From the sequence record PQ595991.1: 44,183 nt of DNA; one strand, written 5' to 3'. The position numbers and the translations under genes were made by a program. The stretch comes from Escherichia phage Psq-1. Below the pieces are notes generated by a model. That model did not search any database. It saw only the letters and a program-made list of their open reading frames with translations, and was not told where the DNA came from. This document shows positions 4,082 to 43,606 of this stretch, in pieces (position 1 is the first letter of the stretch; every line of letters starts with the position of its first letter).

Positions 4082-4130
4082 CCCCCTTAGATGGCAGGGC
4101 CGTCTCCTATGTTGCCGATGGTCGGCGCAT

Positions 4131-4703
4131 ATGAACAAAAGGGCTTATATCATGGCAGAAATCAAAGTTAAGGGCCGACGCGCCAAACTGGACGGGCGAG
4201 TAGCAGTAACCCCGCGTCGTAAACCAGGCGAGCAAACAGAGCATACCAATCTCGGACCGGAAATCGAATACGGAAAGCGCCGTAAAGGCGGCAAATGTGG
4301 ACGACCTACTGACTACCGATCCGTTTACTGCGACCAGCTTCGCCGCTATTTTGCCGACGCCGACGCATGGCAGGTCAACTACTCCGATAAAGGCGCTGCG
4401 CAAGTAATCCCTCGCAACAAAATGCCGACCTTCGGTCGATTTGCCGCTGAAATCGGCGTAGGCGTAGCTTGCCTGTATCGCTGGGCGCGTGCGCATGAGG
4501 AGTTTGCCGAGGCGATGGCGGACGCAATGGAACTGCAGAAAACTTTCCTGATGGAAGCCGGTGGTGTGACCATCGCGGCAGGCTTCGCTACATTCCTGCT
4601 TAAAGCAAACCACGGCGTCCGCGACGATGTACCGCTGGATGACGACGAAGATGATAACGGCGACGTAGTTGTCGAACCTTCCGGCAAAGGCCAGGGTGAA
4701 TAA
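4131..4703 (+). CDS. terminase small subunit (putative)
   Basis: Position immediately upstream of TerL with TAATG overlap; HTH-like PTFGRFAAEIGVGVACLYRWARAHEEFAEA; acidic C-terminus. Start chosen at internal ATG 4131; track ORF opens at 4053. Confidence 0.6.
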   Translation: MNKRAYIMAEIKVKGRRAKLDGRVAVTPRRKPGEQTEHTNLGPEIEYGKRRKGGKCGRPTDYRSVYCDQLRRYFADADAWQVNYSDKGAAQVIPRNKMPTFGRFAAEIGVGVACLYRWARAHEEFAEAMADAMELQKTFLMEAGGVTIAAGFATFLLKANHGVRDDVPLDDDEDDNGDVVVEPSGKGQGE

Positions 4704-9029: not shown

Positions 9030-9141
9030 CCCGTCCGCAGACCCCGACGAGGATTTGATGATTGACGTGAAAAATATGGAATGCGGGGCGAAGCTAAGGG
9101 CGCAGGTGCTGGAGTTGCAGCAAATAATTAAGGGGCCGTAA
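8911..9141 (+). CDS. o-spanin (Rz1-like outer-membrane lipoprotein)
   Basis: ATG 8911 preceded by AAGAGG; signal peptide MLRALTALIVVLMLSAC with lipobox LSAC; Pro-rich mature part with extra Cys; overlaps and extends past the i-spanin frame. Confidence 0.55.
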   Translation: MLRALTALIVVLMLSACGSSNAPLMPLTESALRPPCKFDSPSADPDEDLMIDVKNMECGAKLRAQVLELQQIIKGP

Positions 9142-9153
9142 TGGCCCCTTTTT
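9131..9153. terminator. bidirectional rho-independent terminator between convergent genes
   Basis: AGGGGCC-GTAAT-GGCCCCT hairpin with TTTTT on the plus side and A-run on the other. Confidence 0.6.
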
Positions 9154-9155
9154 CG

Positions 9156-9920
9156 TTAGCGAGGAATGCCGCAAATCTCGTTGAGTGTTTTCACGTCCAG
9201 CGCCACTGCCGTGGATTTGGGCTTGTCCGTGTATGGGATGAATTGCTCGACTTCAGGCCATGCCTTAATCAGCTTCTTGTCTGTATTGTGCAGGTCCAGT
9301 ACACCGGTAACGGTGAGTTTGAACGCATCATACTTCGCGCGCAACTCGCGACGGGCTTTGTCGTTGCGGTCCAGGCGTTTGCAGAAATAATGATCTGCCG
9401 GGTAGTCTACGCGACCGCGAGGAAGATATATCGGCAACGCTTTCCCGTCCTCGTCCACTTCGCACACTGACGCTAACATAATTTCCTCATACCCAGGTAC
9501 GATATCACCGAGATCGGGCGAGAGATTATTCATATATTTCTCTTCCCAGTACCCGCGATGTATGCGGTGTTGGCGACCGTCGCCGCTCAATGACAAGGTG
9601 CGAACATTGCCGCCTGCGTTGATTTCAAAGGTGGCGTTATAGACGCTGCCGATACCCTTCGGGCGGTCGGAGTTATAACTATACGTCGCCTTGTTGGTGT
9701 ATACGCTGACGCCGTACATCTGCGACTGGTCATCGCGGATTAACAGGATATGCTCGCGTAGCGCGGCGAATGTGCGAATGCCGTCCGGCATACAGTCCAG
9801 CGTGATTGCGTACGCCAGGTCGCGAGAGTCCATCATGATTTGTTTGGCTTCGGTTGCGATTTCGTGGTCGCGCAGGATGTTAGCTAGGATCTGATTTTTA
9901 ATGTCTTTTGTCAGTCTCAT
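9156..9920 (-). CDS. hypothetical protein encoded antisense to the head module (254 aa)
   Basis: Start set at internal ATG 9920 with GAGGA 8 nt upstream; own upstream region with ATTGGTTGCA boxes and own terminator; no motif recognised. Confidence 0.5.
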   Translation of the reverse strand: MRLTKDIKNQILANILRDHEIATEAKQIMMDSRDLAYAITLDCMPDGIRTFAALREHILLIRDDQSQMYGVSVYTNKATYSYNSDRPKGIGSVYNATFEINAGGNVRTLSLSGDGRQHRIHRGYWEEKYMNNLSPDLGDIVPGYEEIMLASVCEVDEDGKALPIYLPRGRVDYPADHYFCKRLDRNDKARRELRAKYDAFKLTVTGVLDLHNTDKKLIKAWPEVEQFIPYTDKPKSTAVALDVKTLNEICGIPR

Positions 9921-10069
9921 TTTTGTGTCCTCATTGTTGGTGTGCAACCAATATAGCGCAACCAAGACAAGGATTGCAAGCTAATTTTGCGATTATTTTT
10001 ATCGCTGATAATATTAGAAGCGTGAAGTCGAGCGGGTGGCCTGCTCTGCCACAATCCCAGGGGGATAGC

Positions 10070-12990: not shown

Positions 12991-13584
12991 GTGGCTGAAG
13001 TCTACTCATTCGCCGCCACTATTGCTACGTGGGTGGATAAGACGAAGGAGAACAACGATAAGGCGGTGCGGGCGTACGGAATGCAAATACTCGGACGCCT
13101 TATTGAGATCTCCCCGGTGGGCGACCCTCGCCGGTGGAAAATTAACAGGGCTTACGCGCTGGCCCGCCAGCACGCGAACAAGGTGAACGCCGCGCAGCGT
13201 CGCAAGAATGGCGGCAAACTGAAGCGCGGGCAGAAAAAGCACGCCAGCGTGCTGGTATCATTCAAGACTAAAAACGGCAACGTCACGTTCCGCCAGCGTG
13301 GCTGGGCTGCGAAGAATTACACCGGCGGACGCTTCCGGGGAAACTGGCAGGTTACGTTCGACCGACCGGCGGTTGGCGCTATCGACCGCGTGGACAAGGC
13401 CGGAACGGCAACATTAGCCGCTGGGCGTGAAGTGCTGGCGCATTACGATTCCGGTGAATACGGGTCGATCTGGTTTACTAACAACGTGCCATACGCGCAG
13501 CGACTTGAGTATGGCTGGAGTAAACAAGCGCCTGCGGGGATTGTTCGCGTCGTAGCGGCAGAAATTAATTCTAAGGTGAAATAA
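12991..13584 (+). CDS. neck/tail component (HK97 gp10-like position)
   Basis: GTG start after AAGGGGC; 197 aa; synteny. Confidence 0.4.
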   Translation: MAEVYSFAATIATWVDKTKENNDKAVRAYGMQILGRLIEISPVGDPRRWKINRAYALARQHANKVNAAQRRKNGGKLKRGQKKHASVLVSFKTKNGNVTFRQRGWAAKNYTGGRFRGNWQVTFDRPAVGAIDRVDKAGTATLAAGREVLAHYDSGEYGSIWFTNNVPYAQRLEYGWSKQAPAGIVRVVAAEINSKVK

Positions 13585-14793: not shown

Positions 14794-14823
14794 TTTGGTC
14801 GCTTAAATAGCGGGTGTTAATAT

Positions 14824-14846
14824 GGGGCCAGTACGGCCCCTTTTTT
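14824..14846 (+). terminator. rho-independent terminator
   Basis: GGGGCC-AGTA-CGGCCCC hairpin then TTTTTT. Confidence 0.6.
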
Positions 14847-14862
14847 ATTGGAGAATACTACA

Positions 14863-15225: not shown

Positions 15226-15539
15226 TTGAGGCGGCGCGACGCTTTTATGGCCCGCCGCCACCATCCGAAGATTTAGCCGCGAGTTTATGGGGCGCGACCC
15301 CTGAAGACGTTTGCCCTCCGGTTGCACTATGGCCTGACAATGCGAAGGTAGTCGCAGTCTTCACAGATTGCTCCACGCAATGGCGTACCGGATTCGGTGG
15401 CGCATACGGCATCGACTACGGCGTACTGGAATGGTTATTTAATATGCACGGCATCGAAAACGCGCAACGTGCGTTTAAAGATATCAAGCTAATGGAACGC
15501 GTTGCGCTGGATGAAATGGCGCGGCAGAACCCCGCATAA
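14863..15539 (+). CDS. tail assembly chaperone frameshift product (lambda GT-like), -1 shift at 15216-15222
   Basis: The -1 frame is open, without an ATG, from the slippery site to TAA 15537-15539 and encodes ...AYGIDYGVLEWLFNMHGIENAQRAFKDIKLMERVALDEMARQNPA. A 7-bp GC stem (15230-15236 / 15253-15259) lies 7 nt downstream of the heptamer. Confidence 0.55.
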
Positions 15540-15540
15540 C

Positions 15541-15870
15541 GGAGCGGGACAGGCGGGACGTCCCGTTTTGTCACGCACCTCTAAAACTGCATATTTACTC
15601 ACCACAATTGCATAAACTAAAAGCGGGACAGGCGGGACGTCCCGTTTTGTCCCACCCCCAAAATGTGAATGTCTATTCAGTTTTAGTGCATAAAGTAAGC
15701 GGGACAAAAAGCGGGACAAACCAGGGGCGGGACAAAGTGGGACAGCACCCCCGTCCCCGTCAGTGCTGCCGCGGGTTTTAGCCGATCGGGACAGGCGGGA
15801 CAAACCCCAGTCTTTCAGACTAGACGGGGGTCAGTTGGCCCCCTCGTCTGAGACTGAATAAGGTTTGTTT
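15541..15870. repeat. iteron-like repeat element, copy A
   Basis: About 12 GCGGGACA/GGGACA boxes, two 30-bp direct repeats (15543-15572, 15622-15651) each holding the palindrome CGGGACGTCCCG, TGCATAAA boxes, and a GC-rich inverted repeat (15808-15856). Segment 15687-15861 recurs at 43050-43222. Confidence 0.6.
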
Positions 15871-15924
15871 TAAATTCGCTGATACAATGACCGACGGCAA
15901 CTGCATAAAAAGGGGGACTGCATA

Positions 15925-24300: not shown

Positions 24301-24781
24301 CACGTTTAACCATGCGGGTGGTAGCGCCACTTATAGCCTTAAGGCTGGCGTGACGTATAACGGGGCTTACTATGATGCCGGTATGCAGCTTTCAGTTGTT
24401 GCGGAAGGTGGCGCGGTTAAATCCCGCATCGCGTTCAAGGCGGACCAGTTCTACATCATGCACCCATCTAATGGGTCGCTTTCGTCCGCGTTTATCGTTG
24501 ACGGCGGTCAGGTGTACATTGACACCGCACGCATCAAGAACGCGTCTATCAACTTCGCGCAGATCACGGACACGCTGCAGTCGAATAACTGGAATCCAGG
24601 CAACAGTGGCTGGCGTATCGCGAAGGATGGCGGGGCGGAGTTCAACAACGTAACGGTACGAGGCAACTTGTTCGCTACTACTGGTAACTTCGGATTCTCT
24701 GGAGGGTCGGTACAGATCGACGCCACCGGCATTAACGTGCCGTTACCTGGCGGGGGTAGGGTGAAAGTGGGGACGTGGTAA
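21335..24781 (+). CDS. central tail fibre / host specificity protein (lambda J-like, 1148 aa)
   Basis: Size, position after the I-like gene, and N-terminal region typical of J-family tip proteins. Confidence 0.85.
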   Translation: MTIVYDVTGHKGGGGKQHTPQETPDSLHSLAKIRILLALGEGEFESITSASELRQRVYLDGTPIQNADLSENFPGARVEFRPGTQHQDVIHGFSAVESEQSVGVKLENGTPWVRQINDTSLDAVRVRIGIPALYTSEDNGDLVGGRIDYKIVVYTDNADPREFTFAAVGKTMSLYERDHRIELPPNVNTGWRVEVHRITADSTSAKVVNDIQVQSITEIIDARLRYPLTALLFVEFDAKAFQNIPRVSIKCKGRKVLIPNNYDPITHTYSGDWDGTFRRAWTDNPAWHWYDICITERFGLGRRIKPQMLNRYALYQIAQRCDQLVSDGNGGREIRFKNDMYIQSQTDAWTVLKDLAAIFAGMTWWGNQMLNIVSDQPVAAVSHTITNASVIDGRFDYASGSQKTRYSTFAVAYGNPKNHYDDAIATGQRVELVRRHKINRLDITAIGCTRESEAQRRGHWALISNQLDQQVSFKVGMEGLFFIPGSVVAIADTNISGGFETRGGRLLSDPGTRTVLNTDSEITFRPGDKFLVRTDSGNVETREIASVNGNKVTLKTALDADPIPDQPFCVDGDDIQLQKFRITDLEYDDSTSTFSVRGIEYNDSKYDAVDNGARLDPGIFTQVPDGVMKGPESVTITPSQISSQGQLITNVDIVFPPVKDAVVYEIQWRRTSLQNMAVQWGNDWVNIPRTASNGAHIPNVFSGNYQARVRAIGMGEISSPWVSSAITPVEGRLGGLNAPIITIAISGLHQILWKWNHNNAATDISYTELEVRKTGETEWKFLTNVPYPGAEYAQTSLEFGIYQQLRARVADKIGNLSDWSAPFEGQVSDKVDEYMKGLDDEFLTSEDGKHFQEAIDTIPQGIYESMLTDAQQLINARSEYQGIYAEIKVAYNVATDAHKAVAQLETLIGTRLDDAEASIHTLQTAQSTHEQAFAQYQQTVAAKFGEQEAAIQQVQTATADVAGALAEYKTQVAAQFGQQSAAIEQKMTSTFNHAGGSATYSLKAGVTYNGAYYDAGMQLSVVAEGGAVKSRIAFKADQFYIMHPSNGSLSSAFIVDGGQVYIDTARIKNASINFAQITDTLQSNNWNPGNSGWRIAKDGGAEFNNVTVRGNLFATTGNFGFSGGSVQIDATGINVPLPGGGRVKVGTW

Positions 24782-24788
24782 AGGAGAA

Positions 24789-24810
24789 GGGGCCATCCGG
24801 CCCCTTTTTT
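24789..24810. terminator. bidirectional rho-independent terminator
   Basis: GGGGCC-ATCC-GGCCCC hairpin with TTTTTT downstream on plus and an A-run on the other side, between convergent genes. Confidence 0.6.
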
Positions 24811-25774
24811 AATAGATGTTAGGAATTACGAGTAACGGGGTGGGTACTGCAATATTTTTACCCGGCATTTGGAATTGCTGCCGTGAATAGTTGCCGATTA
24901 CCCGGTTTTTGGCAATGCGCACATTACCGCCTGCCATTCGAATCCCGTTCATTCGAACGTGATTGTAGCCGCCGTTGTTCTCAATGAGCGCGCCGGTATA
25001 CGAAAGCTGGACCAGGCTATTGCCTATGTACTGATCGCCGCCGCCGATATAGATAAGGCGGTCATAAACAAATGGCTTATTCACTGTTGAGAACGTGACC
25101 TGACCCTGGTTGTTTGTCATGGTTATGCCGTTTCCAGGGGTGGGTGGCGTATTGTTGAATATAACCAGGTCCATTTCAACGGCAGCGCCTACGTCGTCAA
25201 TCCCACCATAGGACGCATTACGGACGATAATACTTCCGCCATCGAAGCCGACCGACACGTTTCCGTCGTCCCAGCGCGCGAATGGGACACCACCTACAGG
25301 TAACGGCATACTTCCGTTCACCCACACGCGCTGCGCATATTGGCAGGTCATTAGCCTGGATACATTTGATATGGCGGTGAAGTCCGTCGAGTTCGCCACC
25401 AGTAACCCTGCGTTGCGCGAACCCACCGGCAACACTTCCATGATCACCCCGCCCCATGTTGGAAGCCCGCTATATGCGCCATATGCGTCTTCACCTCGCA
25501 AGGTGATTCCGCCATCCCCGTTACGTTGTACTGAGGTGACGTAGAAAGGGTCGGGCAAGACCAGTGTCTGGTCGAATACTTCTATAACTTCAACGGGGCT
25601 TGTGAGCGCGACGACCAGATCTGACCCTGGCGTTAGCTGAGTGTTAATAGTAAGCGTCTTATCAGACTGGCAGCGCTGATAGAATGAGGTACAGAATGAC
25701 GGAGCGCGAAGTCCGGCTGTTATCTCCATCACCGGCCTTCCGTCGTTGTAGTCTATAAGTATTCCAGCGCCCAT
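24809..25774 (-). CDS. hypothetical Gly/Asn-rich protein, possible receptor-binding protein (321 aa)
   Basis: ATG 25774 with GGGAG upstream, overlapping the stop of the lipoprotein gene; beta-rich composition (GGGDQYIGNS, NNGGYNH); antisense between J and the tail fibre. Product assignment is by analogy only. Confidence 0.4.
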   Translation of the reverse strand: MGAGILIDYNDGRPVMEITAGLRAPSFCTSFYQRCQSDKTLTINTQLTPGSDLVVALTSPVEVIEVFDQTLVLPDPFYVTSVQRNGDGGITLRGEDAYGAYSGLPTWGGVIMEVLPVGSRNAGLLVANSTDFTAISNVSRLMTCQYAQRVWVNGSMPLPVGGVPFARWDDGNVSVGFDGGSIIVRNASYGGIDDVGAAVEMDLVIFNNTPPTPGNGITMTNNQGQVTFSTVNKPFVYDRLIYIGGGDQYIGNSLVQLSYTGALIENNGGYNHVRMNGIRMAGGNVRIAKNRVIGNYSRQQFQMPGKNIAVPTPLLVIPNIY

Positions 25775-25998: not shown

Positions 25999-26078
25999 GG
26001 TATCATCCCCTATATTTGGTTGAGTTTTAGTATTGCACCGCTCAACCAAGAATGCAACCAATTTATGAGGATTCAGCT

Positions 26079-27719
26079 ATGGCAGCGGGTACACTATCCG
26101 TAACGAATAACAGCAAGGCGGTTGTCGGGGTAGGCACGACGTTTACCACGTTTACCGCTGGCGACTTCTTAACTCTGGTGGTGGGGCAAGTGCCTTACAC
26201 TGTTGCTATCGCGTCCGTCGAAAGCGACACCGCGATTACGCTTGTGCTTCCGTTCGACGGCCCCACGGCAACCGGCCTCGCGTGGGATGGCGTTAAGCGC
26301 GATACCATGTCGCTGGCAACGATGGGCGTAACAGTACAGGCACAGAAAGCGTTGCGCTTGATGATCGCTGACGAAAACAACTGGCGTGCAATCTTCGGAG
26401 ACGAAGAAGAAGTCACGGTAACGCTGCCGAACGGGCAAGTTATGCAAGGTATGGCATGGGGCTACCTGTCACAATTGATGAGGCAGATCGACCCCGTTGA
26501 AATGCGCAACCTGCAACAACAAGCCGCGGCATCTGAAGCAGCAGCGCAAGGATTTCGCAATGAGGCCGAAGGCTTCAAGACTGAGACGGCGGGGATCCGC
26601 GACGCCACCAACCAGATTAAGGCGGATACGCAGGCTATCCGCGACGCCACCAACCAGATTAAGGCGGATACGCAGGCTATCCACGACGCCACCAATACCA
26701 TCAAGACGCAGACGGCCCAGATTAAGACTGACACCGGCGTTATTCGCGATGAGGCCAATGCCGCGAAGGCTGAAGCGCAATCCGCCCGAGATGCCGCGCT
26801 GGGATATCGGAACGAGGCCGAACAATTCAAGAATGAGATTGACCCGTCTAACTTTCTGGCAAAGGGTGGCAACCTGGCTGGGTTAACTGACTTGTCCGAG
26901 TCGCGGGATAACTTGGGTTTAGGAGCGTTGGCGACTAAAGATTCGGCGGCGCTAAACTCCACAGATACGACCGGTATTCTGCCCTTAGATAAGGGCGGTT
27001 TAGGCGCTGGTACCATCCCTGGCGCACGGGAGACGATGCATATTTATGGTCATGACGCTACGTTCGGGACCATAAATAATATCCTCACATACTTCAACAA
27101 TATTGCGGGTAACGGCGGACTCTTCTCGTTTCGAGATGGTGCCGTTGACGCCACTAACACCTACAAATTCGGCTCAGCAATACTGTTTCGCTCAGCCGAC
27201 ACCTACGGACTGTTAAGTGTTGACCACAACAACGGAAACGTTAGAGCATCCGGTGGTGTAGTTTCTGGTGGGATCGCGGCCACAGCATACATCAACAACC
27301 TGTGGGGTACGCGTAACACCACCGTAGACGGTAACGGGTTTATTAAAACCGCGTCGCCCATCGTCAAGATCTTCAGTGACGGTGCCGCGGAGACTAACGA
27401 CGAGGCCGAAGGCGTTACGGTGACTCGCATATCTGCGGGGGTGTATGTTGTGGAGGGGTGTCTAGGCCTCAACTCAGACCCATCCTGGGGCGGGCCTGAC
27501 GGCGGGATTGAGATTCCGACGGACGTGAACAAGCAGCCTCGTTTATGGGTTGATTATAAAGTGCGCGCTGACGGCTCTGTGGAGGTACGCACATACCACC
27601 GAACACACCCACACGCTCCAGCATTCGCAAGAAATGAGATAGAAGGTGTGGCGGAAGGGGACCCGGTTGATATACCGCGTGGCACGTTCATATCTGTTCG
27701 GGTTAATATGCCTGAGTAA
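26079..27719 (+). CDS. tail fibre protein (546 aa)
   Basis: ATG 26079 with GAGGA upstream; coiled-coil shaft with 14-aa repeats (IRDATNQIKADTQA), Gly-rich C-terminal domain. Confidence 0.7.
   Translation: MAAGTLSVTNNSKAVVGVGTTFTTFTAGDFLTLVVGQVPYTVAIASVESDTAITLVLPFDGPTATGLAWDGVKRDTMSLATMGVTVQAQKALRLMIADENNWRAIFGDEEEVTVTLPNGQVMQGMAWGYLSQLMRQIDPVEMRNLQQQAAASEAAAQGFRNEAEGFKTETAGIRDATNQIKADTQAIRDATNQIKADTQAIHDATNTIKTQTAQIKTDTGVIRDEANAAKAEAQSARDAALGYRNEAEQFKNEIDPSNFLAKGGNLAGLTDLSESRDNLGLGALATKDSAALNSTDTTGILPLDKGGLGAGTIPGARETMHIYGHDATFGTINNILTYFNNIAGNGGLFSFRDGAVDATNTYKFGSAILFRSADTYGLLSVDHNNGNVRASGGVVSGGIAATAYINNLWGTRNTTVDGNGFIKTASPIVKIFSDGAAETNDEAEGVTVTRISAGVYVVEGCLGLNSDPSWGGPDGGIEIPTDVNKQPRLWVDYKVRADGSVEVRTYHRTHPHAPAFARNEIEGVAEGDPVDIPRGTFISVRVNMPE
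26595..26678 (+). repeat. perfect 42-bp tandem duplication inside the tail fibre gene
   Basis: ATCCGCGACGCCACCAACCAGATTAAGGCGGATACGCAGGCT twice (26595-26636, 26637-26678), followed by a degenerate third unit. Confidence 0.85.
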
Positions 27720-27731
27720 AGCATAATGCGA

Positions 27732-27753
27732 AGGGGCCATTCGGCCCCTTTTT
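27732..27753. terminator. bidirectional rho-independent terminator
   Basis: AGGGGCC-ATTC-GGCCCCT hairpin followed by TTTTT, between convergent genes. Confidence 0.6.
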
Positions 27754-28327
27754 AATTTGAGTTTTCCCAGTCCATTTTGCGCCGCACAAGCGGGCTTTCG
27801 TAGTATTCCTTACCTTCCACTTCCACTAAATGCCAGTCATTCACAATCACGTATGGCTCTGCTATATCCTCAATCACGCCGTGCGCGCTATGCTGCCCGA
27901 ACGACACGCCAACCAGAATAACTCCGGCAACCCGACGGGAAAGATACTCGCGGGCACAACGGGCCTCAACCAGACCGCGACGGATGCCGCTGGTGGCTTT
28001 GACCTCATATGTCCAGACGGCATCAATCATGTGCTCTTTGTAGTCGGGACCGGATTTTACCTTGCGCTTGCCGACCATGATAATATCGCCGCGGTCAATG
28101 GTATTGGCGCTAAACAGGCCGGTACGCATGAGCAAGCCTTGAGGGATACAACTGCGCCCGCCTGCTTGCCCTTCCAGGTACATGCCCGCAAACATCTCGC
28201 CCAGCACACCGACCAGTCGGCTTTGCTTGCACGCGTCAGACTTTAAGCGCCATTGGTCAAACTCGATGCTTGCTATCATTGCCGCCAGGTGGAATTGTTT
28301 ACCAGATATTTCATATTCGCCGTACAT
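27752..28327 (-). CDS. hypothetical protein with PD-(D/E)XK-like signature (191 aa)
   Basis: RGDIIMVGKRK...GPDYKEHMIDAVWTYEVK resembles the D...(D/E)xK core seen in the VRR-NUC protein of this genome (PDLIIIINGKIVFVEVK). Weak. Confidence 0.35.
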   Translation of the reverse strand: MYGEYEISGKQFHLAAMIASIEFDQWRLKSDACKQSRLVGVLGEMFAGMYLEGQAGGRSCIPQGLLMRTGLFSANTIDRGDIIMVGKRKVKSGPDYKEHMIDAVWTYEVKATSGIRRGLVEARCAREYLSRRVAGVILVGVSFGQHSAHGVIEDIAEPYVIVNDWHLVEVEGKEYYESPLVRRKMDWENSN

Positions 28328-28932: not shown

Positions 28933-28961
28933 ACTATAGTGCAACCAACTATTGGTTGCAA
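28933..28961 (-). promoter_or_regulatory. sigma70-like promoter overlapping an inverted ATTGGTTGCA pair
   Basis: Minus strand reads TTGCAA (-35), 17-bp spacer, TATAGT (-10). The inverted repeat TGCAACCAA-CTA-TTGGTTGCA (28940-28960) overlaps it. Confidence 0.4.
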
Positions 28962-40223: not shown

Positions 40224-40553
40224 ATGAATATCGACGACGCAATCGAAATGTTAACTAAGACTGTTTGCAGTGAGACTAGCCGGTCTTGGGCATATACAGA
40301 TGCCGTTGGGGCGGTGCTATTTGAAATCGAACGTCTGCGACTTACCGAAAAAGAATTGCGCGCGAAGCTGGAATTACTCAACGGTACGGCAGCCAGCAAG
40401 CTGCAAAAGCACAATGAAGAAATGGAAGAATACAAAAAACAGGTTATCCGTTTGCGCGATGAGGGGAAGTCATGGGCGATGATCGCCGAGTTGACAGGAA
40501 TTAATCAGAGCACCGTGCGCTCCTGGGTACGCAATAACAAAACTTCGAAATAA
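40224..40553 (+). CDS. HTH domain protein, putative regulator (109 aa)
   Basis: C-terminal HTH GKSWAMIAELTGINQSTVRSWVRNNK; coiled-coil middle; first gene of the plus-strand early unit. Confidence 0.5.
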   Translation: MNIDDAIEMLTKTVCSETSRSWAYTDAVGAVLFEIERLRLTEKELRAKLELLNGTAASKLQKHNEEMEEYKKQVIRLRDEGKSWAMIAELTGINQSTVRSWVRNNKTSK

Positions 40554-40723
40554 GGCAACGGCAATGAGCTTAATTAAATTCGCTGTAACAAGACCCTCAT
40601 GGGCGATGATCGCCGAGTTGACAGGAATTAATCAGAGCACCGTGCGCTCCTGGGTACGCAATAACAAAACTTCGAAATAAGGCAACGGCAATGAGCTTAA
40701 TTAAATTCGCTGTAACAAGACCC
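40470..40723. repeat. exact 127-bp tandem duplication (40470-40596 and 40597-40723)
   Basis: Both copies read identically by eye; they span the last 28 codons of the HTH gene and the first 11 codons of the primase gene. Confidence 0.9.
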
Positions 40724-42955
40724 GCTAAAAAAGGCGAAAAAGCCAGGGCGGAAAACTTCCAGATGACAACTGATGAATTTTTCGAATTTATCAATGACGC
40801 GAAAGAAATCTCATCGGTGCACATCAACAAGACCGAGGATAAAGCTGAGTATGCGCGCCGCAAGCGCAAGGCCGATGGCATCGTGGCATATACCAGTGAC
40901 GGCCTACGCCGTAAGACCAGCGCGGTGGACCGCTCGATCCTGTTCTTTGATATTGACCGCACCGACACTCGCACCTTGCGCCGCTGCCGTAAGGCGTTCA
41001 TTGACGCGGGTCTGGAACACGTATTCCACACAACCACCGGCGATCGCCACCCGCTGAAAGGCGGCACGCGTTGCGCCCGTTTCCTTGTGCTCACAGATAA
41101 ACCAGTACCGGCGGAAGACCTGGGCCGCGTCCAGTACGCGCTGTTAGACCAACTTGGTCTGTCAGATGTGGACTTCGACGATTGTACGAAGGACACAAAC
41201 CGTCTTATGTACCTGCCACACCAGCAGTCTGTCATTAAGTGCCACCACGGCAAACGTGCCAATGTGCGGCGTCTGCTACGCCTGGCGGATAAGCTGGGAG
41301 TGGAGAAAGAGGAAGTACGCCGCGAGCTTACCCAGGGCGACGACGCAGTGGCGGACGGGATTCTGGACTGGTGCTTCCAGGCAGGATTCGAGGAGTTATC
41401 TTCCGGTCGCGGTTATGAAGTTCCGTGCCCGAACGAACATCTGCACAGCGGCGAAGGGTCGACGGCTATCATGGTCAAGGATGGCGAGATCCGTTTCAAG
41501 TGTATGCACACCGGCAACGAGTGTTGCTCGGAGCTAAATAGACACCAGCACCTTGCGCTACGTCTCATCGGGATACCGGACCACCTGAACGTCGAGCCGC
41601 ACAACATGTCACGTAAGCAAATCGCCGCCATCCTGCCAGGTCTGGACGACGAGGAAGTCGAATCCTTATATGACCACATTGTTGATGCGGTTGGCGACGG
41701 CGAAGAATATGGCGTGTGCACCGATGCGGATCTTGATAACGAGCCGGTTGCGCTGTTCAGTAAGCACGACCCGATCATCGAGGGGTTGATTAACTTTAAA
41801 TCGACCTGGTACATGGCGGGTGAGTCGAATATCGGTAAGTCTTTCTATGTGCTGGGGCAGATGGGCGCGGTTGCCGCCGGTATTCCGTTTGGCGGTGCGA
41901 AGGTCGTCCAGTCGCATTGCTTCTATTTCGATGCGGAAGGCGGCGAAGCCTCCAACCAGCGCAAAGAAGCATTGCAGATTAAATATGAGCACGACCTGGA
42001 CAAGCTGCACATTATAGACCTGCAGTCACGCGGCTGGGATATCACCAGCAAGTCCGGTTTGCGCGAAGTTATCAGCTTTATCAACCGCACCGCTAACGGC
42101 GAACCGGTTGGCCTGGTGGCGTTCGACTCACTTAACCAGACTGTTGCGCTGCGGTCCGCCGATGCTAAACCGTTTGACGAGAACAACGCCAGCGATATGG
42201 GAGAAGTGGTCAAAGCGCTGAAAGCCATTGCGGAAAATACAGGTGGCAGTGCGGGCGTCATCCACCACCCGGCGAAAGGTGCAAACGGCAGCAGAACCCC
42301 ACGCGGATCCGGCGCACTGCATGGTGCTGTCGATTCAGCTTTCTTCCTGGAACAGCCGGACGACAACCAGCCAGGACAACTCAACCTGTATCACGAAAAA
42401 TCACGTAATGGCATCAAGCAAGCGCCGCGTGGCTTCGTCCTGCTCAAGTGCAAGGTGGAGGTGGATCTCCGCAAGTCAGAAGCGTTCGCGTCGCACCAGT
42501 CCACCAGCACCGGGCCGGACTTCGGAGACGTCGTTGCCGGTTGGGACGTCAAACCAATTGCGTCCACCCCGCGCGACGAGACTCTGTACCTCGTACCAGT
42601 AGCCCTGGCACCGTTCGCTATAGAACAGGCAAAGGCCGCTGGCAAAGCCGCAGTTAAGGAAGAAAACGCCGCCGGTCCGCGCAACGAAAAAGAGAAAGTG
42701 CTTTATGCGGCCCTGGAAAAACTGATGGAAGATAACCCTAACCATACTGGATTCAGTAAATCGGCAATTGTCCGCCAGGCGGGACTCGCGAAGGGTGGTA
42801 CTTCGACGAAAGCAATCGACGATATGGTGGAGCGTGGCGTGATTGGTTTTTATACAGATCCGCACACCGGGGCCATATATGGGTCGTCGAATTTAGTCAT
42901 CAAATCGGATATTCCCATAACGCTTTCGGCGACCGACGACGACCTGAAGGATTAA
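40691..42955 (+). CDS. DNA primase/helicase-type replication protein (754 aa)
   Basis: Zn-binding-like HLHSGEGS...FKCMHTGNECC; P-loop GESNIGKS and Walker B-like LVAFDSLNQ in the C-terminal half. Confidence 0.6.
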   Translation: MSLIKFAVTRPAKKGEKARAENFQMTTDEFFEFINDAKEISSVHINKTEDKAEYARRKRKADGIVAYTSDGLRRKTSAVDRSILFFDIDRTDTRTLRRCRKAFIDAGLEHVFHTTTGDRHPLKGGTRCARFLVLTDKPVPAEDLGRVQYALLDQLGLSDVDFDDCTKDTNRLMYLPHQQSVIKCHHGKRANVRRLLRLADKLGVEKEEVRRELTQGDDAVADGILDWCFQAGFEELSSGRGYEVPCPNEHLHSGEGSTAIMVKDGEIRFKCMHTGNECCSELNRHQHLALRLIGIPDHLNVEPHNMSRKQIAAILPGLDDEEVESLYDHIVDAVGDGEEYGVCTDADLDNEPVALFSKHDPIIEGLINFKSTWYMAGESNIGKSFYVLGQMGAVAAGIPFGGAKVVQSHCFYFDAEGGEASNQRKEALQIKYEHDLDKLHIIDLQSRGWDITSKSGLREVISFINRTANGEPVGLVAFDSLNQTVALRSADAKPFDENNASDMGEVVKALKAIAENTGGSAGVIHHPAKGANGSRTPRGSGALHGAVDSAFFLEQPDDNQPGQLNLYHEKSRNGIKQAPRGFVLLKCKVEVDLRKSEAFASHQSTSTGPDFGDVVAGWDVKPIASTPRDETLYLVPVALAPFAIEQAKAAGKAAVKEENAAGPRNEKEKVLYAALEKLMEDNPNHTGFSKSAIVRQAGLAKGGTSTKAIDDMVERGVIGFYTDPHTGAIYGSSNLVIKSDIPITLSATDDDLKD

Positions 42956-43049
42956 ATTTTGCGCGCATTGGTTGCCATTTTGAGTGTTTTTAGCTGGTCG
43001 CATTGGTTGCCGTGTAGTGTAAAAATATTGAATAGTTATGCAATAAAAC

Positions 43050-43222
43050 TGCATAAAGTAAGCGGGACAAAAAGCGGGACAGACCAGGGGCGGGACAAAG
43101 CGGGACAGCACCCCCGTCCCGCCCCGGATGACGCGGCCTGGCGAGGAGCGGGACAGGCGGGACAACTACCAGTCTTTCAGACTAGACGGGGGTCAACGGC
43201 CCCCCTCGTCTGAGACTGCATA
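43050..43222. repeat. iteron-like repeat element, copy B
   Basis: Six GCGGGACA boxes, a TGCATAAA box, inverted GTCCCGC...GCGGGAC, and the same GC-rich inverted repeat as copy A (43170-43217). AT-rich stretch at 43021-43050. Confidence 0.6.
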
Positions 43223-43370
43223 AAATCCGGGATTGCAAAATACACGGCAGCACATTGTAAATTGCGGTCGTCGCGGAACTAGGCAACCAATGCGGGATGC
43301 AGAACGTGGTGTGAAAAATGCAGTCACAGCAGATAGCGATCAACTTTTTCATACGCGTGATTAATATTGG

Positions 43371-43399
43371 TTGCATTCACCTCGGCGCCTTGCTATATT
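43371..43399 (+). promoter_or_regulatory. sigma70-like promoter built from two ATTGGTTGCA boxes
   Basis: -35 TTGCAT (43371-43376), 17-bp spacer, -10 TATATT (43394-43399). Confidence 0.4.
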
Positions 43400-43426
43400 G
43401 GTTGCACACCAACAGGAGGGCGGAAC

Positions 43427-43606
43427 ATGAAAACCGAAATGGTTGATAAGCACGAAATCAAGATCGGCGATACGGTAGTCCACAACGGGGGGCTTCGCAC
43501 TGTGTGCAAGCGAGCGTTTAGCATCGATGAATTTATGGGACTGCTACTTTGGGGCGACAGCTATCGTTTAGGGTATAAACTGGTTGAGAGGGTTACGGAA
43601 CGATGA
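43427..43606 (+). CDS. hypothetical early protein (59 aa)
   Basis: ATG 43427 preceded by AACAGGAGGG. Confidence 0.45.
   Translation: MKTEMVDKHEIKIGDTVVHNGGLRTVCKRAFSIDEFMGLLLWGDSYRLGYKLVERVTER

Follow-up and report, generated by a model that had tools for sequence, protein, structure and literature searches.

A conserved iteron element behind the primase-helicase gene of Escherichia phage Psq-1 and its relatives as a probable origin of replication

Background

Iteron origins served by an initiator-helicase that loads itself are a well-known kind of replication start. Here we analyse a repeat element that probably belongs to this kind in Escherichia phage Psq-1 (PQ595991.1), a Dhillonvirus and thus one of the HK578-, SO-1- and JL1-like siphoviruses of E. 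coli. The window, as we call the whole stretch of DNA analysed, comprises 44,183 nucleotides and holds the element twice: copy B (43050-43223) stands directly behind the gene for the phage primase-helicase, and copy A (15687-15861) lies in the late structural region. We propose that the element is an iteron array for the winged-helix domain of the phage's own primase-helicase and that it is, most likely, the replication origin. Dhillonvirus and the Guernseyvirinae (Jersey-like phages of Salmonella, with their relatives) count among the small siphoviruses isolated most often and are in use in phage therapy and biocontrol.

The closest described systems come from several kinds of replicon. In the Staphylococcus aureus pathogenicity islands (SaPIs), a C-terminal winged-helix domain of the initiators Rep and PriRep5 reads six to twelve iterons of 5-6 nt directly downstream of rep; recognition is element-specific and there is no separate loader (PMC9371898). 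The phage-inducible chromosomal islands (PICIs) of E. coli have pri-rep-ori modules (PMC6092414). The alpha protein of P4 unites primase, helicase and a C-terminal winged helix in one polypeptide, and the winged helix binds the origin repeats (PMC2777425; PMC4234260). Plasmid RSF1010 carries iterons followed by single-strand initiation (ssi) hairpins (PMC4234260). The ORF904 protein of pRN1 and proteins of the Bordetella phages BIP-1 and BPP-1 combine a primase-polymerase of the archaeo-eukaryotic primase (AEP) type with a helicase and a C-terminal winged helix, and a large, essential cis-acting stem-loop lies just 3' of the gene (PMC4234260). Finally, SPP1 is a lytic siphovirus of 44 kb with two similarly built sites, oriL and oriR, each consisting of directly repeated sequences together with an AT-rich region and both bound by one initiator; the initiator bound at oriR has been proposed to stall the fork and thereby trigger the switch from theta to concatemer replication (PMC6316719; PMC3485210).

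The repeat itself has been noticed before. The record of Sodalis phage SO-1 annotates its two copies as 'region A' and 'region B', mutually similar and made of 'direct, inverted and palindromic repeat sequences', and mentions a 'possible' function for them. As far as the literature was accessible to our search, we found nothing on the origins of Dhillonvirus or Guernseyvirinae beyond this GenBank note, and in the literature searched there was no paper analysing the repeat.

A repeated array of boxes behind the primase-helicase gene

Copies B and A are 85.7% identical over 175 nt by BLAST (43050-43223 against 15687-15861), in agreement with a preliminary description of this DNA in which 43050-43222 was seen to repeat 15687-15861; a repeat finder extends the match to 43029-43223 against 15666-15861 (families D5 and D6). 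Two blocks enclose a linker. The first block, 69 nt long and starting at TGCATAAAG, differs between the copies at exactly the two positions counted earlier, and the second, of 76 nt, at nine, while the approximately 29 nt between them, rightly described as a diverged linker of some 30 nt, are unrelated in sequence. Both regions are dominated by the 8-mer GCGGGACA, which has 15 exact matches in the window where 1.95 +/- 1.55 are expected (none of 100 shuffles reached 15), and 12 of the 15 fall in the two repeat regions. An unbiased scan of the window for clustered 6-mers returned regions A and B as the only strong clusters.

The primase-helicase reading frame ends at 42955 on the plus strand, and copy B does lie just downstream of that stop, as first stated. 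It opens with an AT-rich leader (43010-43061), which is a candidate DNA-unwinding element and holds TGAATAGTTATGCA (43029-43042) and TGCATAAA (43050-43057). The AT-rich DNA reported earlier ahead of copy B is likewise real: A+T reaches 73-77% across 43010-43055 against about 46% for the genome, in a stretch of only about 45 bp. The first box is 107 nt past the stop codon, and four direct plus-strand boxes (43062, 43074, 43090 and 43100; 43062-43107) follow one another at spacings of 12, 16 and 10. Then come an inverted box, GTCCCGC (43116-43122), a GC-rich linker (43119-43147, about 80% G+C) and two further direct plus-strand boxes (43148 and 43157; 43148-43164), so that copy B has six direct boxes and one inverted box. 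The inverted pair previously recognized around the linker consists of this GTCCCGC and of GCGGGAC at 43148-43154. A long imperfect hairpin of about 50 nt, with a G-run/C-run apical stem, closes the element (43170-43218; DNA-fold z -3.3 on the plus and -3.4 on the minus strand); by analogy with described origins, it is a candidate single-strand priming or assembly signal.

An alignment of 18 B copies and 17 A copies from Dhillonvirus shows no change in the CGGGACA cores, while the spacers vary in sequence at constant length; in the hairpin the stems do not vary but the loop does. Copy A is closer to copy B of its own genome than to the B copies of other genomes (88.3% against 84.9%, permutation p=0.0002), and the two copies therefore evolve in concert. 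The duplication is old and maintained, and not recent as one of the two explanations offered before (selection or recent duplication) would have it, given that both copies are present in 158 of 158 related GenBank records of Dhillonvirus and evolve in concert.

Co-variation of the boxes with a winged-helix domain

Relatives were collected with the primase as anchor, down to 40% protein identity, and the comparison included four complete Guernseyvirinae genomes (Pantoea phage AH01, Enterobacter phage phiEap-2, Salmonella phage VSiP and Hafnia phage TS33) as well as IMG/VR contigs. In Dhillonvirus, in these four phages and in the contigs, a module with the same order of parts directly follows the primase-helicase stop in most lineages, even where primase identity falls to 40-50%. 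It begins with an AT-rich leader and direct boxes; inverted boxes and a linker come next, and then two boxes and a long hairpin. At the same primase identities, TGAATAGTTATGCA is kept upstream of the boxes in most lineages, mostly in one or two copies, and is missing from the lineage with CTCGCAA boxes. The two boxes after the linker are found in all lineages, each with its own lineage word. Hairpins equivalent to the terminal one, of unrelated sequence, are significantly stable in eight lineages (DNA z -2.3 to -5.0), and the apex often carries an inverted box-like word.

The box word changes between lineages. It is GCGGGACA in Dhillonvirus, CGGACAA in AH01, phiEap-2 and others, CCGACA in the relatives L027, L226 and L262, GGGGGAGA in VSiP and L222, one of GGGATAA, AGGGATA and GGGGATGA in L028, TS33 and L031, and CTCGCAA in L238-L244. 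All boxes of a lineage share its word, including those that have no complementary partner; a concerted change that takes in the unpaired boxes is what would be expected from a changed protein specificity. A degenerate pattern search of IMG/VR for pairs of TCCGACA yielded mainly chance matches.

The C-terminus of the primase-helicase changes along with the word. Its last ~100 residues are predicted with confidence, by fold comparison, to form a winged helix, and the domain lies at 42686-42901 on the plus strand (residues ~666-737). Across 18 representative lineages, each family of the C-terminal recognition-helix region pairs with one box word. The median ratio of C-terminal to N-terminal identity is 0.89 for pairs with the same box and 0.63 for pairs with different boxes (p=1.3e-7, the pairs being non-independent). 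L027 and AH01 illustrate how the change comes about. Their DNA is about 91% identical through the primase gene up to roughly 100 codons before the stop, has no detectable similarity across the C-terminus and the element, and is 99% identical right after; their proteins share 96% of residues 1-640 and 48% of residues 660-754. In three independent pairs with different boxes, the N-terminal and C-terminal parts are 99% and 47% (L226 and L234), 96% and 47% (L222 and L224) and 96% and 48% (L227 and AH01) identical. All three DNA swaps start about 300 nt before the stop, and similarity clearly resumes about 250-300 nt past it in two of the three, the right boundary of the L222/L224 swap being less clear. 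From these shared boundaries and the co-variation of domain and box, it follows that the winged-helix domain and the element form one exchangeable cassette.

Because the repeat word and the DNA-binding tail of the enzyme change together from phage to phage among the relatives, both an origin and a named reader can be proposed. The boxes are probably read by the primase-helicase, through its predicted winged helix. A small helix-turn-helix (HTH) protein encoded at 40224-40553 was considered for the same role and is disfavoured: while the boxes change, the region upstream of the winged helix stays 96-99% identical.

The primase-helicase gene (plus strand, 40691-42955, 754 aa) encodes an AEP/prim-pol-like N-terminal domain (~40691-41290), a Cys/His cluster (~41426-41545), an AAA_25 RecA-type helicase core (41759-42283) and the C-terminal winged helix. 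In a comparison of predicted folds, the N-terminus shows an AEP primase fold near that of RSF1010 RepB', and AAA_25, which is RecA/RepA-like, is the sole Pfam match of the protein. Its sequence matched no chain in the PDB, and the structure of the P4 winged helix (1ka8) was not in the top 60 fold matches of the C-terminal domain. A protein search with the C-terminal 239 residues alone gave no matches; the full-length query recovered the relatives.

The start of this gene has a peculiarity of its own, an exact tandem duplication of 127 nt (40470-40723) whose two copies are 100% identical and reach from the 3' end of the HTH gene into the beginning of the primase-helicase gene. Both genes are intact, the HTH gene ending in the first copy and the primase gene starting in the second. 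The segment is single-copy in eight relatives; its doubling in Psq-1 either happened very recently or comes from faulty assembly.

Comparison with described systems

The Psq-1 locus resembles the SaPI and PICI origins in its C-terminal winged helix, its seven boxes placed directly after the gene and its lineage-specific words, and the helicase of SaPI5 is likewise fused to a primase. However, the helicases of those islands are AAA+ proteins of superfamily 3 (SF3) or the MCM-like SF6, whereas the core of the Psq-1 enzyme is an AAA_25 domain of RecA type. Their two opposed iteron sets flank a central AT-rich region; in Psq-1 the middle is rich in G+C, and the AT-rich DNA precedes the first box on its 5' side. 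Psq-1 also adds the long terminal hairpin, it is a lytic phage and not a satellite, and Dhillonvirus has the second copy. P4 alpha differs in both enzymatic domains, with a primase of the DnaG/Toprim type and an SF3 helicase in place of the AEP-like primase and the AAA_25 helicase.

With the IncQ plasmid RSF1010, the Psq-1 enzyme shares a RepA-type helicase and a RepB'-type primase. RSF1010 employs three proteins (RepA, RepB' and RepC) where Psq-1 has one fused polypeptide, and its iterons are ~20-mers in contrast to the irregularly spaced 8-mers of Psq-1, which has one long hairpin rather than the paired ssiA and ssiB. Psq-1 is without a RepC homologue, and the winged helix would take that role. 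The proteins of pRN1, BIP-1 and BPP-1 have SF3 helicases and no iterons have been found with them, whereas in Psq-1 the iterons are dominant and the hairpin is shorter (~50 nt). The likeness to SPP1 lies in the layout, with one site at the replication genes and the other in a gap between late structural genes. In SPP1, however, initiator, helicase and loader are separate proteins (gp38, gp40 and gp39), host DnaG does the priming, oriL lies inside gene 38, and there is no sequence or protein homology to the Psq-1 system. The element is not a member of the SaPI/PICI, P4 or IncQ families, because at least one defining feature of each is missing. What is new here is the combination of domains, the added hairpin and the fixed second copy.

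Proposed function and alternative explanations

An iteron origin is expected to present at least three copies of a short motif in non-coding DNA; copy B does so, and region A contains more. It is also expected to have a cognate initiator encoded by the replicon, to which the co-varying predicted winged-helix domain and the exchange of the cassette point indirectly. The preliminary description had suggested an origin from the iterons and AT-rich DNA beside an initiator gene, and the conservation of the module, the co-variation of box and winged helix and the cassette exchange argue for the same reading. Initiation could proceed as follows. A hexamer of the enzyme would bind the GCGGGACA boxes through its winged-helix domains, as the co-variation suggests, and would then melt the AT-rich leader (43010-43061) and load itself there by analogy with SaPI/PICI Rep and P4 alpha. 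In what is the most speculative step, unwinding might bare the hairpin at 43170-43218 as an assembly or priming signal for the AEP-type primase domain, comparable to ssiA and ssiB of RSF1010 and to the origin of pRN1 with its stem-loop. Synthesis would then pass to the Pol I-type polymerase of the phage.

Several observations weigh against this proposal, whose support is comparative throughout. Physical linkage alone could co-transfer the 3' end of the gene and the element, though the shared left breakpoint at a domain boundary appears to argue against linkage as the only explanation. The AT-rich stretch is short and flanks the iterons on one side instead of separating two sets of them, and the box spacing (12, 16, 10, 9) is irregular and out of helical phase. 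Cumulative GC skew, named in the preliminary description as a check, has its minimum at ~40.0-40.2 kb and its maximum at ~27.7 kb, both at switches of gene orientation; the skew tracks gene orientation, does not single out 43 kb and does not exclude it either. Both copies are co-oriented with the flanking genes, the hairpin folds about equally on either strand, and a role at the RNA level is possible. Box types are not always sharply distinct, since L226 carries both CGGACA and CCGACA, one base apart. Lastly, L021-L026 and L265 keep the winged-helix domain, yet a search covering 10 kb upstream and about 4 kb downstream of the gene found no box cluster; any initiator-binding sites of these relatives must lie elsewhere.

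GenBank offered no close genome with which to extend the lineage of L021-L026 and L265. In this Guernseyvirinae-like lineage the primase gene is followed by ordinary terminators and then by genes on the opposite strand (L265: 12340-16415). L265 also has, at 13195-13340, a strong promoter-like sequence (TTGACT-N17-TATGCT/TATGAT) and then a GC-rich, structured-looking stretch of about 130 nt before the next gene, as does L026 at ~4130-4330; the stretch may be a non-coding RNA or a leader.

The boxes might instead serve transcription. The winged-helix domain or another phage protein bound to them would autoregulate or insulate at the end of the early operon and before the tape-measure gene, and the hairpins would be RNA terminators or attenuators. 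The element does sit between two transcription units, beside operator-like ATTGGTTGC boxes and a promoter-like region, the GenBank record of CS16 has a software-predicted 'terminator' inside it, and in several Guernseyvirinae a U-rich TTATTCATTTAT tract follows the hairpin. But the box hairpin and the terminal hairpin of Dhillonvirus have no T-run, and the hairpin at 43170-43218 is followed by CATAAAATCC. A consensus scan for intrinsic terminators found none in the region B element and none on the plus (transcribed) strand of region A, its one match within region A being on the minus strand in a mini-unit. Late transcription, moreover, must cross copy A to reach the tape-measure gene, and the lineages that do have ordinary terminators after the primase carry no boxes. 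When a replicative primase-helicase is fused to a domain that binds specific DNA sequences, replication offers a direct rationale with documented precedents, and we consider a purely transcriptional role rather improbable.

Still less can be said for a non-coding RNA gene or a cis-acting RNA in two copies, either an antitermination RNA of the put or nut kind or a protein-sponge RNA with GGGAC motifs. Besides the shared orientation of copies and flanking genes, such an RNA would have in its favour a conserved TTGAAT-N18-CATAAA upstream, read directly from the sequence, and a 186-nt region that folds somewhat better than its shuffles (z -2.2 to -2.5). The fold of the whole element, however, has the same z on the opposite strand, and the minus-strand terminal hairpin is equal or slightly better in six of eight lineages, by small margins. 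Rfam 15 gave no match at the gathering score in the whole window and none at E<=1 in 42900-43450, and no sigma-70 promoter passed the scan in region B. The unpaired boxes change in concert with the paired ones, and what they co-vary with is the winged-helix domain of an enzyme that acts on DNA. Structured RNA was set aside on these grounds, with Rfam empty, the fold z modest and strand-symmetric and the pairing of box with inverted box not kept in copy A; this explanation is very unlikely. The slightest chance of all belongs to a repeat that plays no part in replication, be it a site recognized for packaging (pac), a hotspot of recombination or a small mobile repeat that landed twice. It would be consistent with two copies evolving in concert, and several GenBank records start or end near the element, perhaps at breakpoints of the DNA or of the assembly, although conventions of assembly or annotation would also place record ends beside a repeat of 175 bp. 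Against it stand the fixed site after the primase-helicase stop across two phage groups and the single copy in Guernseyvirinae. No target-site duplication was seen, the co-variation is with a domain of the primase and not with the terminase, and the element was absent from the 5,426 E. coli genomes and 72,556 plasmids searched.

Copy A

Region A (15539-15924) sits between the stop of the tail-chaperone gene and the start of the tape-measure gene. The module of copy A (plus strand, 15666-15861) repeats the whole plan: after the AT-rich leader come four direct boxes and one inverted box, then a linker unlike that of copy B, and finally two boxes and a hairpin (15808-15856). Ahead of it are two extra mini-units (15543-15579 and 15622-15658, plus strand; repeat family D15, 92% identity). 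Each has two direct boxes and then inverted copies, of which one in the first unit and two in the second are exact GTCCC.

Copy A is absent from the Guernseyvirinae genomes examined, so that there is one cluster per genome in Guernseyvirinae and there are two in Dhillonvirus. Since Guernseyvirinae have copy B alone, copy B is ancestral and copy A is a Dhillonvirus addition; copy B is therefore misnamed when it is called the second copy, as it was at first. We propose that copy A is a second site specific to Dhillonvirus and bound by the same protein. In P4 the iterons are octamers and occur at ori and at crr, two separate sites that are both required in cis. In comparison, the predicted winged helix goes with two box clusters in Dhillonvirus and with one in Guernseyvirinae.

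Copy A could be a second origin, a cis-enhancer like crr of P4, or a bound roadblock that, like oriR of SPP1, aids the switch to concatemer synthesis. One tentative reading, for copy A only, is that it is a control site rather than an origin: the bound initiator would stall the first forks and so bring about the switch to concatemers, or copy A would titrate or handcuff the initiator, or it would act as a crr-like enhancer for copy B. It has the more boxes (where they are densest, CGGGAC is found 11 times in a 400-nt window, against 7 in B) and the two mini-units with boxes both ways, it lies in the late region as oriR of SPP1 does, and it arose in Dhillonvirus alone while the relatives manage with one copy. 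Against a control site stands the completeness of copy A: no part of the module is missing, the AT-rich leader and hairpin are both there, and the invariant positions are the same, as would be expected of a full origin.

A more far-reaching scheme seems to us doubtful as a whole, if attractive. In it, one polypeptide would run the full pathway in the IncQ style: an exchangeable winged helix would read the iterons, the RepA-like helicase would load itself, and the hairpin would direct priming by the RepB'-like AEP domain. The winged helix and the element would be a cassette portable between lytic phages, and copy A of Dhillonvirus, rather than a second origin, would be a programmed barrier with initiator bound to it, or a partner in looping, and would set the switch from theta to concatemer replication. 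A barrier of this sort at copy A would, to our knowledge, be without precedent among phages of Gram-negative bacteria.

Three database records that match the element are unusual. The 88.6-kb record PQ843332.1 ('Escherichia phage P-GXEC-L2P5') matches it in seven places, which suggests a concatenated or double assembly. OQ221563.1 and MG065648.1 ('Acinetobacter phage NJ01' and 'Campylobacter phage A144') are about 90% identical to the Dhillonvirus element, and their host assignments look doubtful.

Neighbouring boxes and other features

A second motif, ATTGGTTGC, surrounds copy B. It has 12 sites in the genome against 0.47 expected: 9944, 26054, 28951, 30600, 30617, 33560, 40026, 42967, 43002, 43283 (minus strand), 43366 and 43397. 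Two of them, reading ATTGGTTGCC, lie on the plus strand between the primase stop and the element (42967 and 43002; 42967-43010), outside the repeat. Three more (43283 on the minus strand, 43366 and 43397) fall within 43283-43405, together with a promoter-like or leader region of the next small-gene operon, which starts with an ATG at 43427. Boxes were said at first to flank copy B, and so they do; the two upstream ones, however, read ATTGGTTGCC and do not end in GCA, and the motif is not specific to the element, with its 12 sites genome-wide. Elsewhere the boxes are mainly paired, just upstream of operon starts and on both strands, and at 28941-28959 they form a palindrome. In L019 the boxes near the element are inverted, and in Guernseyvirinae an equivalent motif, ATGTTGGCTG, occurs at the same kinds of place. 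By its distribution, ATTGGTTGC is probably a genome-wide operator of a phage regulator or part of a class of phage promoters, separate from the repeat. The HTH protein encoded at 40224-40553 is a candidate reader of these boxes. A 23-nt sequence, GCTATATTGGTTGCACACCAACA, occurs at 43392-43414 and as a perfect inverted copy at 9935-9957 (repeat family I5); it precedes the ribosome-binding sites of the first small gene after region B and of a minus-strand gene in the structural region, as a shared promoter or leader.

Just downstream of the element is the box CACGGCAGCA (plus strand, 43243-43252). A box of the form CACGGCA(G/A)CA stands 20-40 nt past the element in every lineage examined, including those with other iteron words (the window, L016, L019, L027, L028, L031, L218-L222, L224, L226 and L238). 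Two open reading frames that overlap the element, 42959-43213 (plus strand) and 42893-43165 (minus strand), are unlikely to be genes, given indels of 1 nt in about half of the B copies and no such frame in Guernseyvirinae. DnaA boxes were also considered: TTATGCA in the leader resembles TTATNCACA, but neither element contains a consensus box.

Two further repeats were recorded elsewhere in the window. Four hairpins that resemble intrinsic terminators share a GGGGCC...GGCCCC stem with a T-run and are located at the ends of transcription units (9129-9162, 14821-14854, 24781-24816 and 27725-27760; families D10, D16 and D17). A coding tandem repeat at 26577-26777 has a 42-nt period and four copies of 61-100% identity; it lies in an open reading frame of 555 aa (26052-27719), which is probably a fibre protein with a repeated unit of 14 residues.

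Conclusions

This analysis supplies a precise candidate origin for Dhillonvirus and Guernseyvirinae and names the domain expected to read it. Origin specificity in these phages would reside in a small exchangeable cassette of about 100 codons and about 250 bp, which bears on the compatibility of replication during co-infection, on the design of chimeric and rebooted phage genomes and on phage-dependent replicons. The fixed second copy of Dhillonvirus offers a natural system in which to study the role of a second initiator-binding site in a lytic phage.

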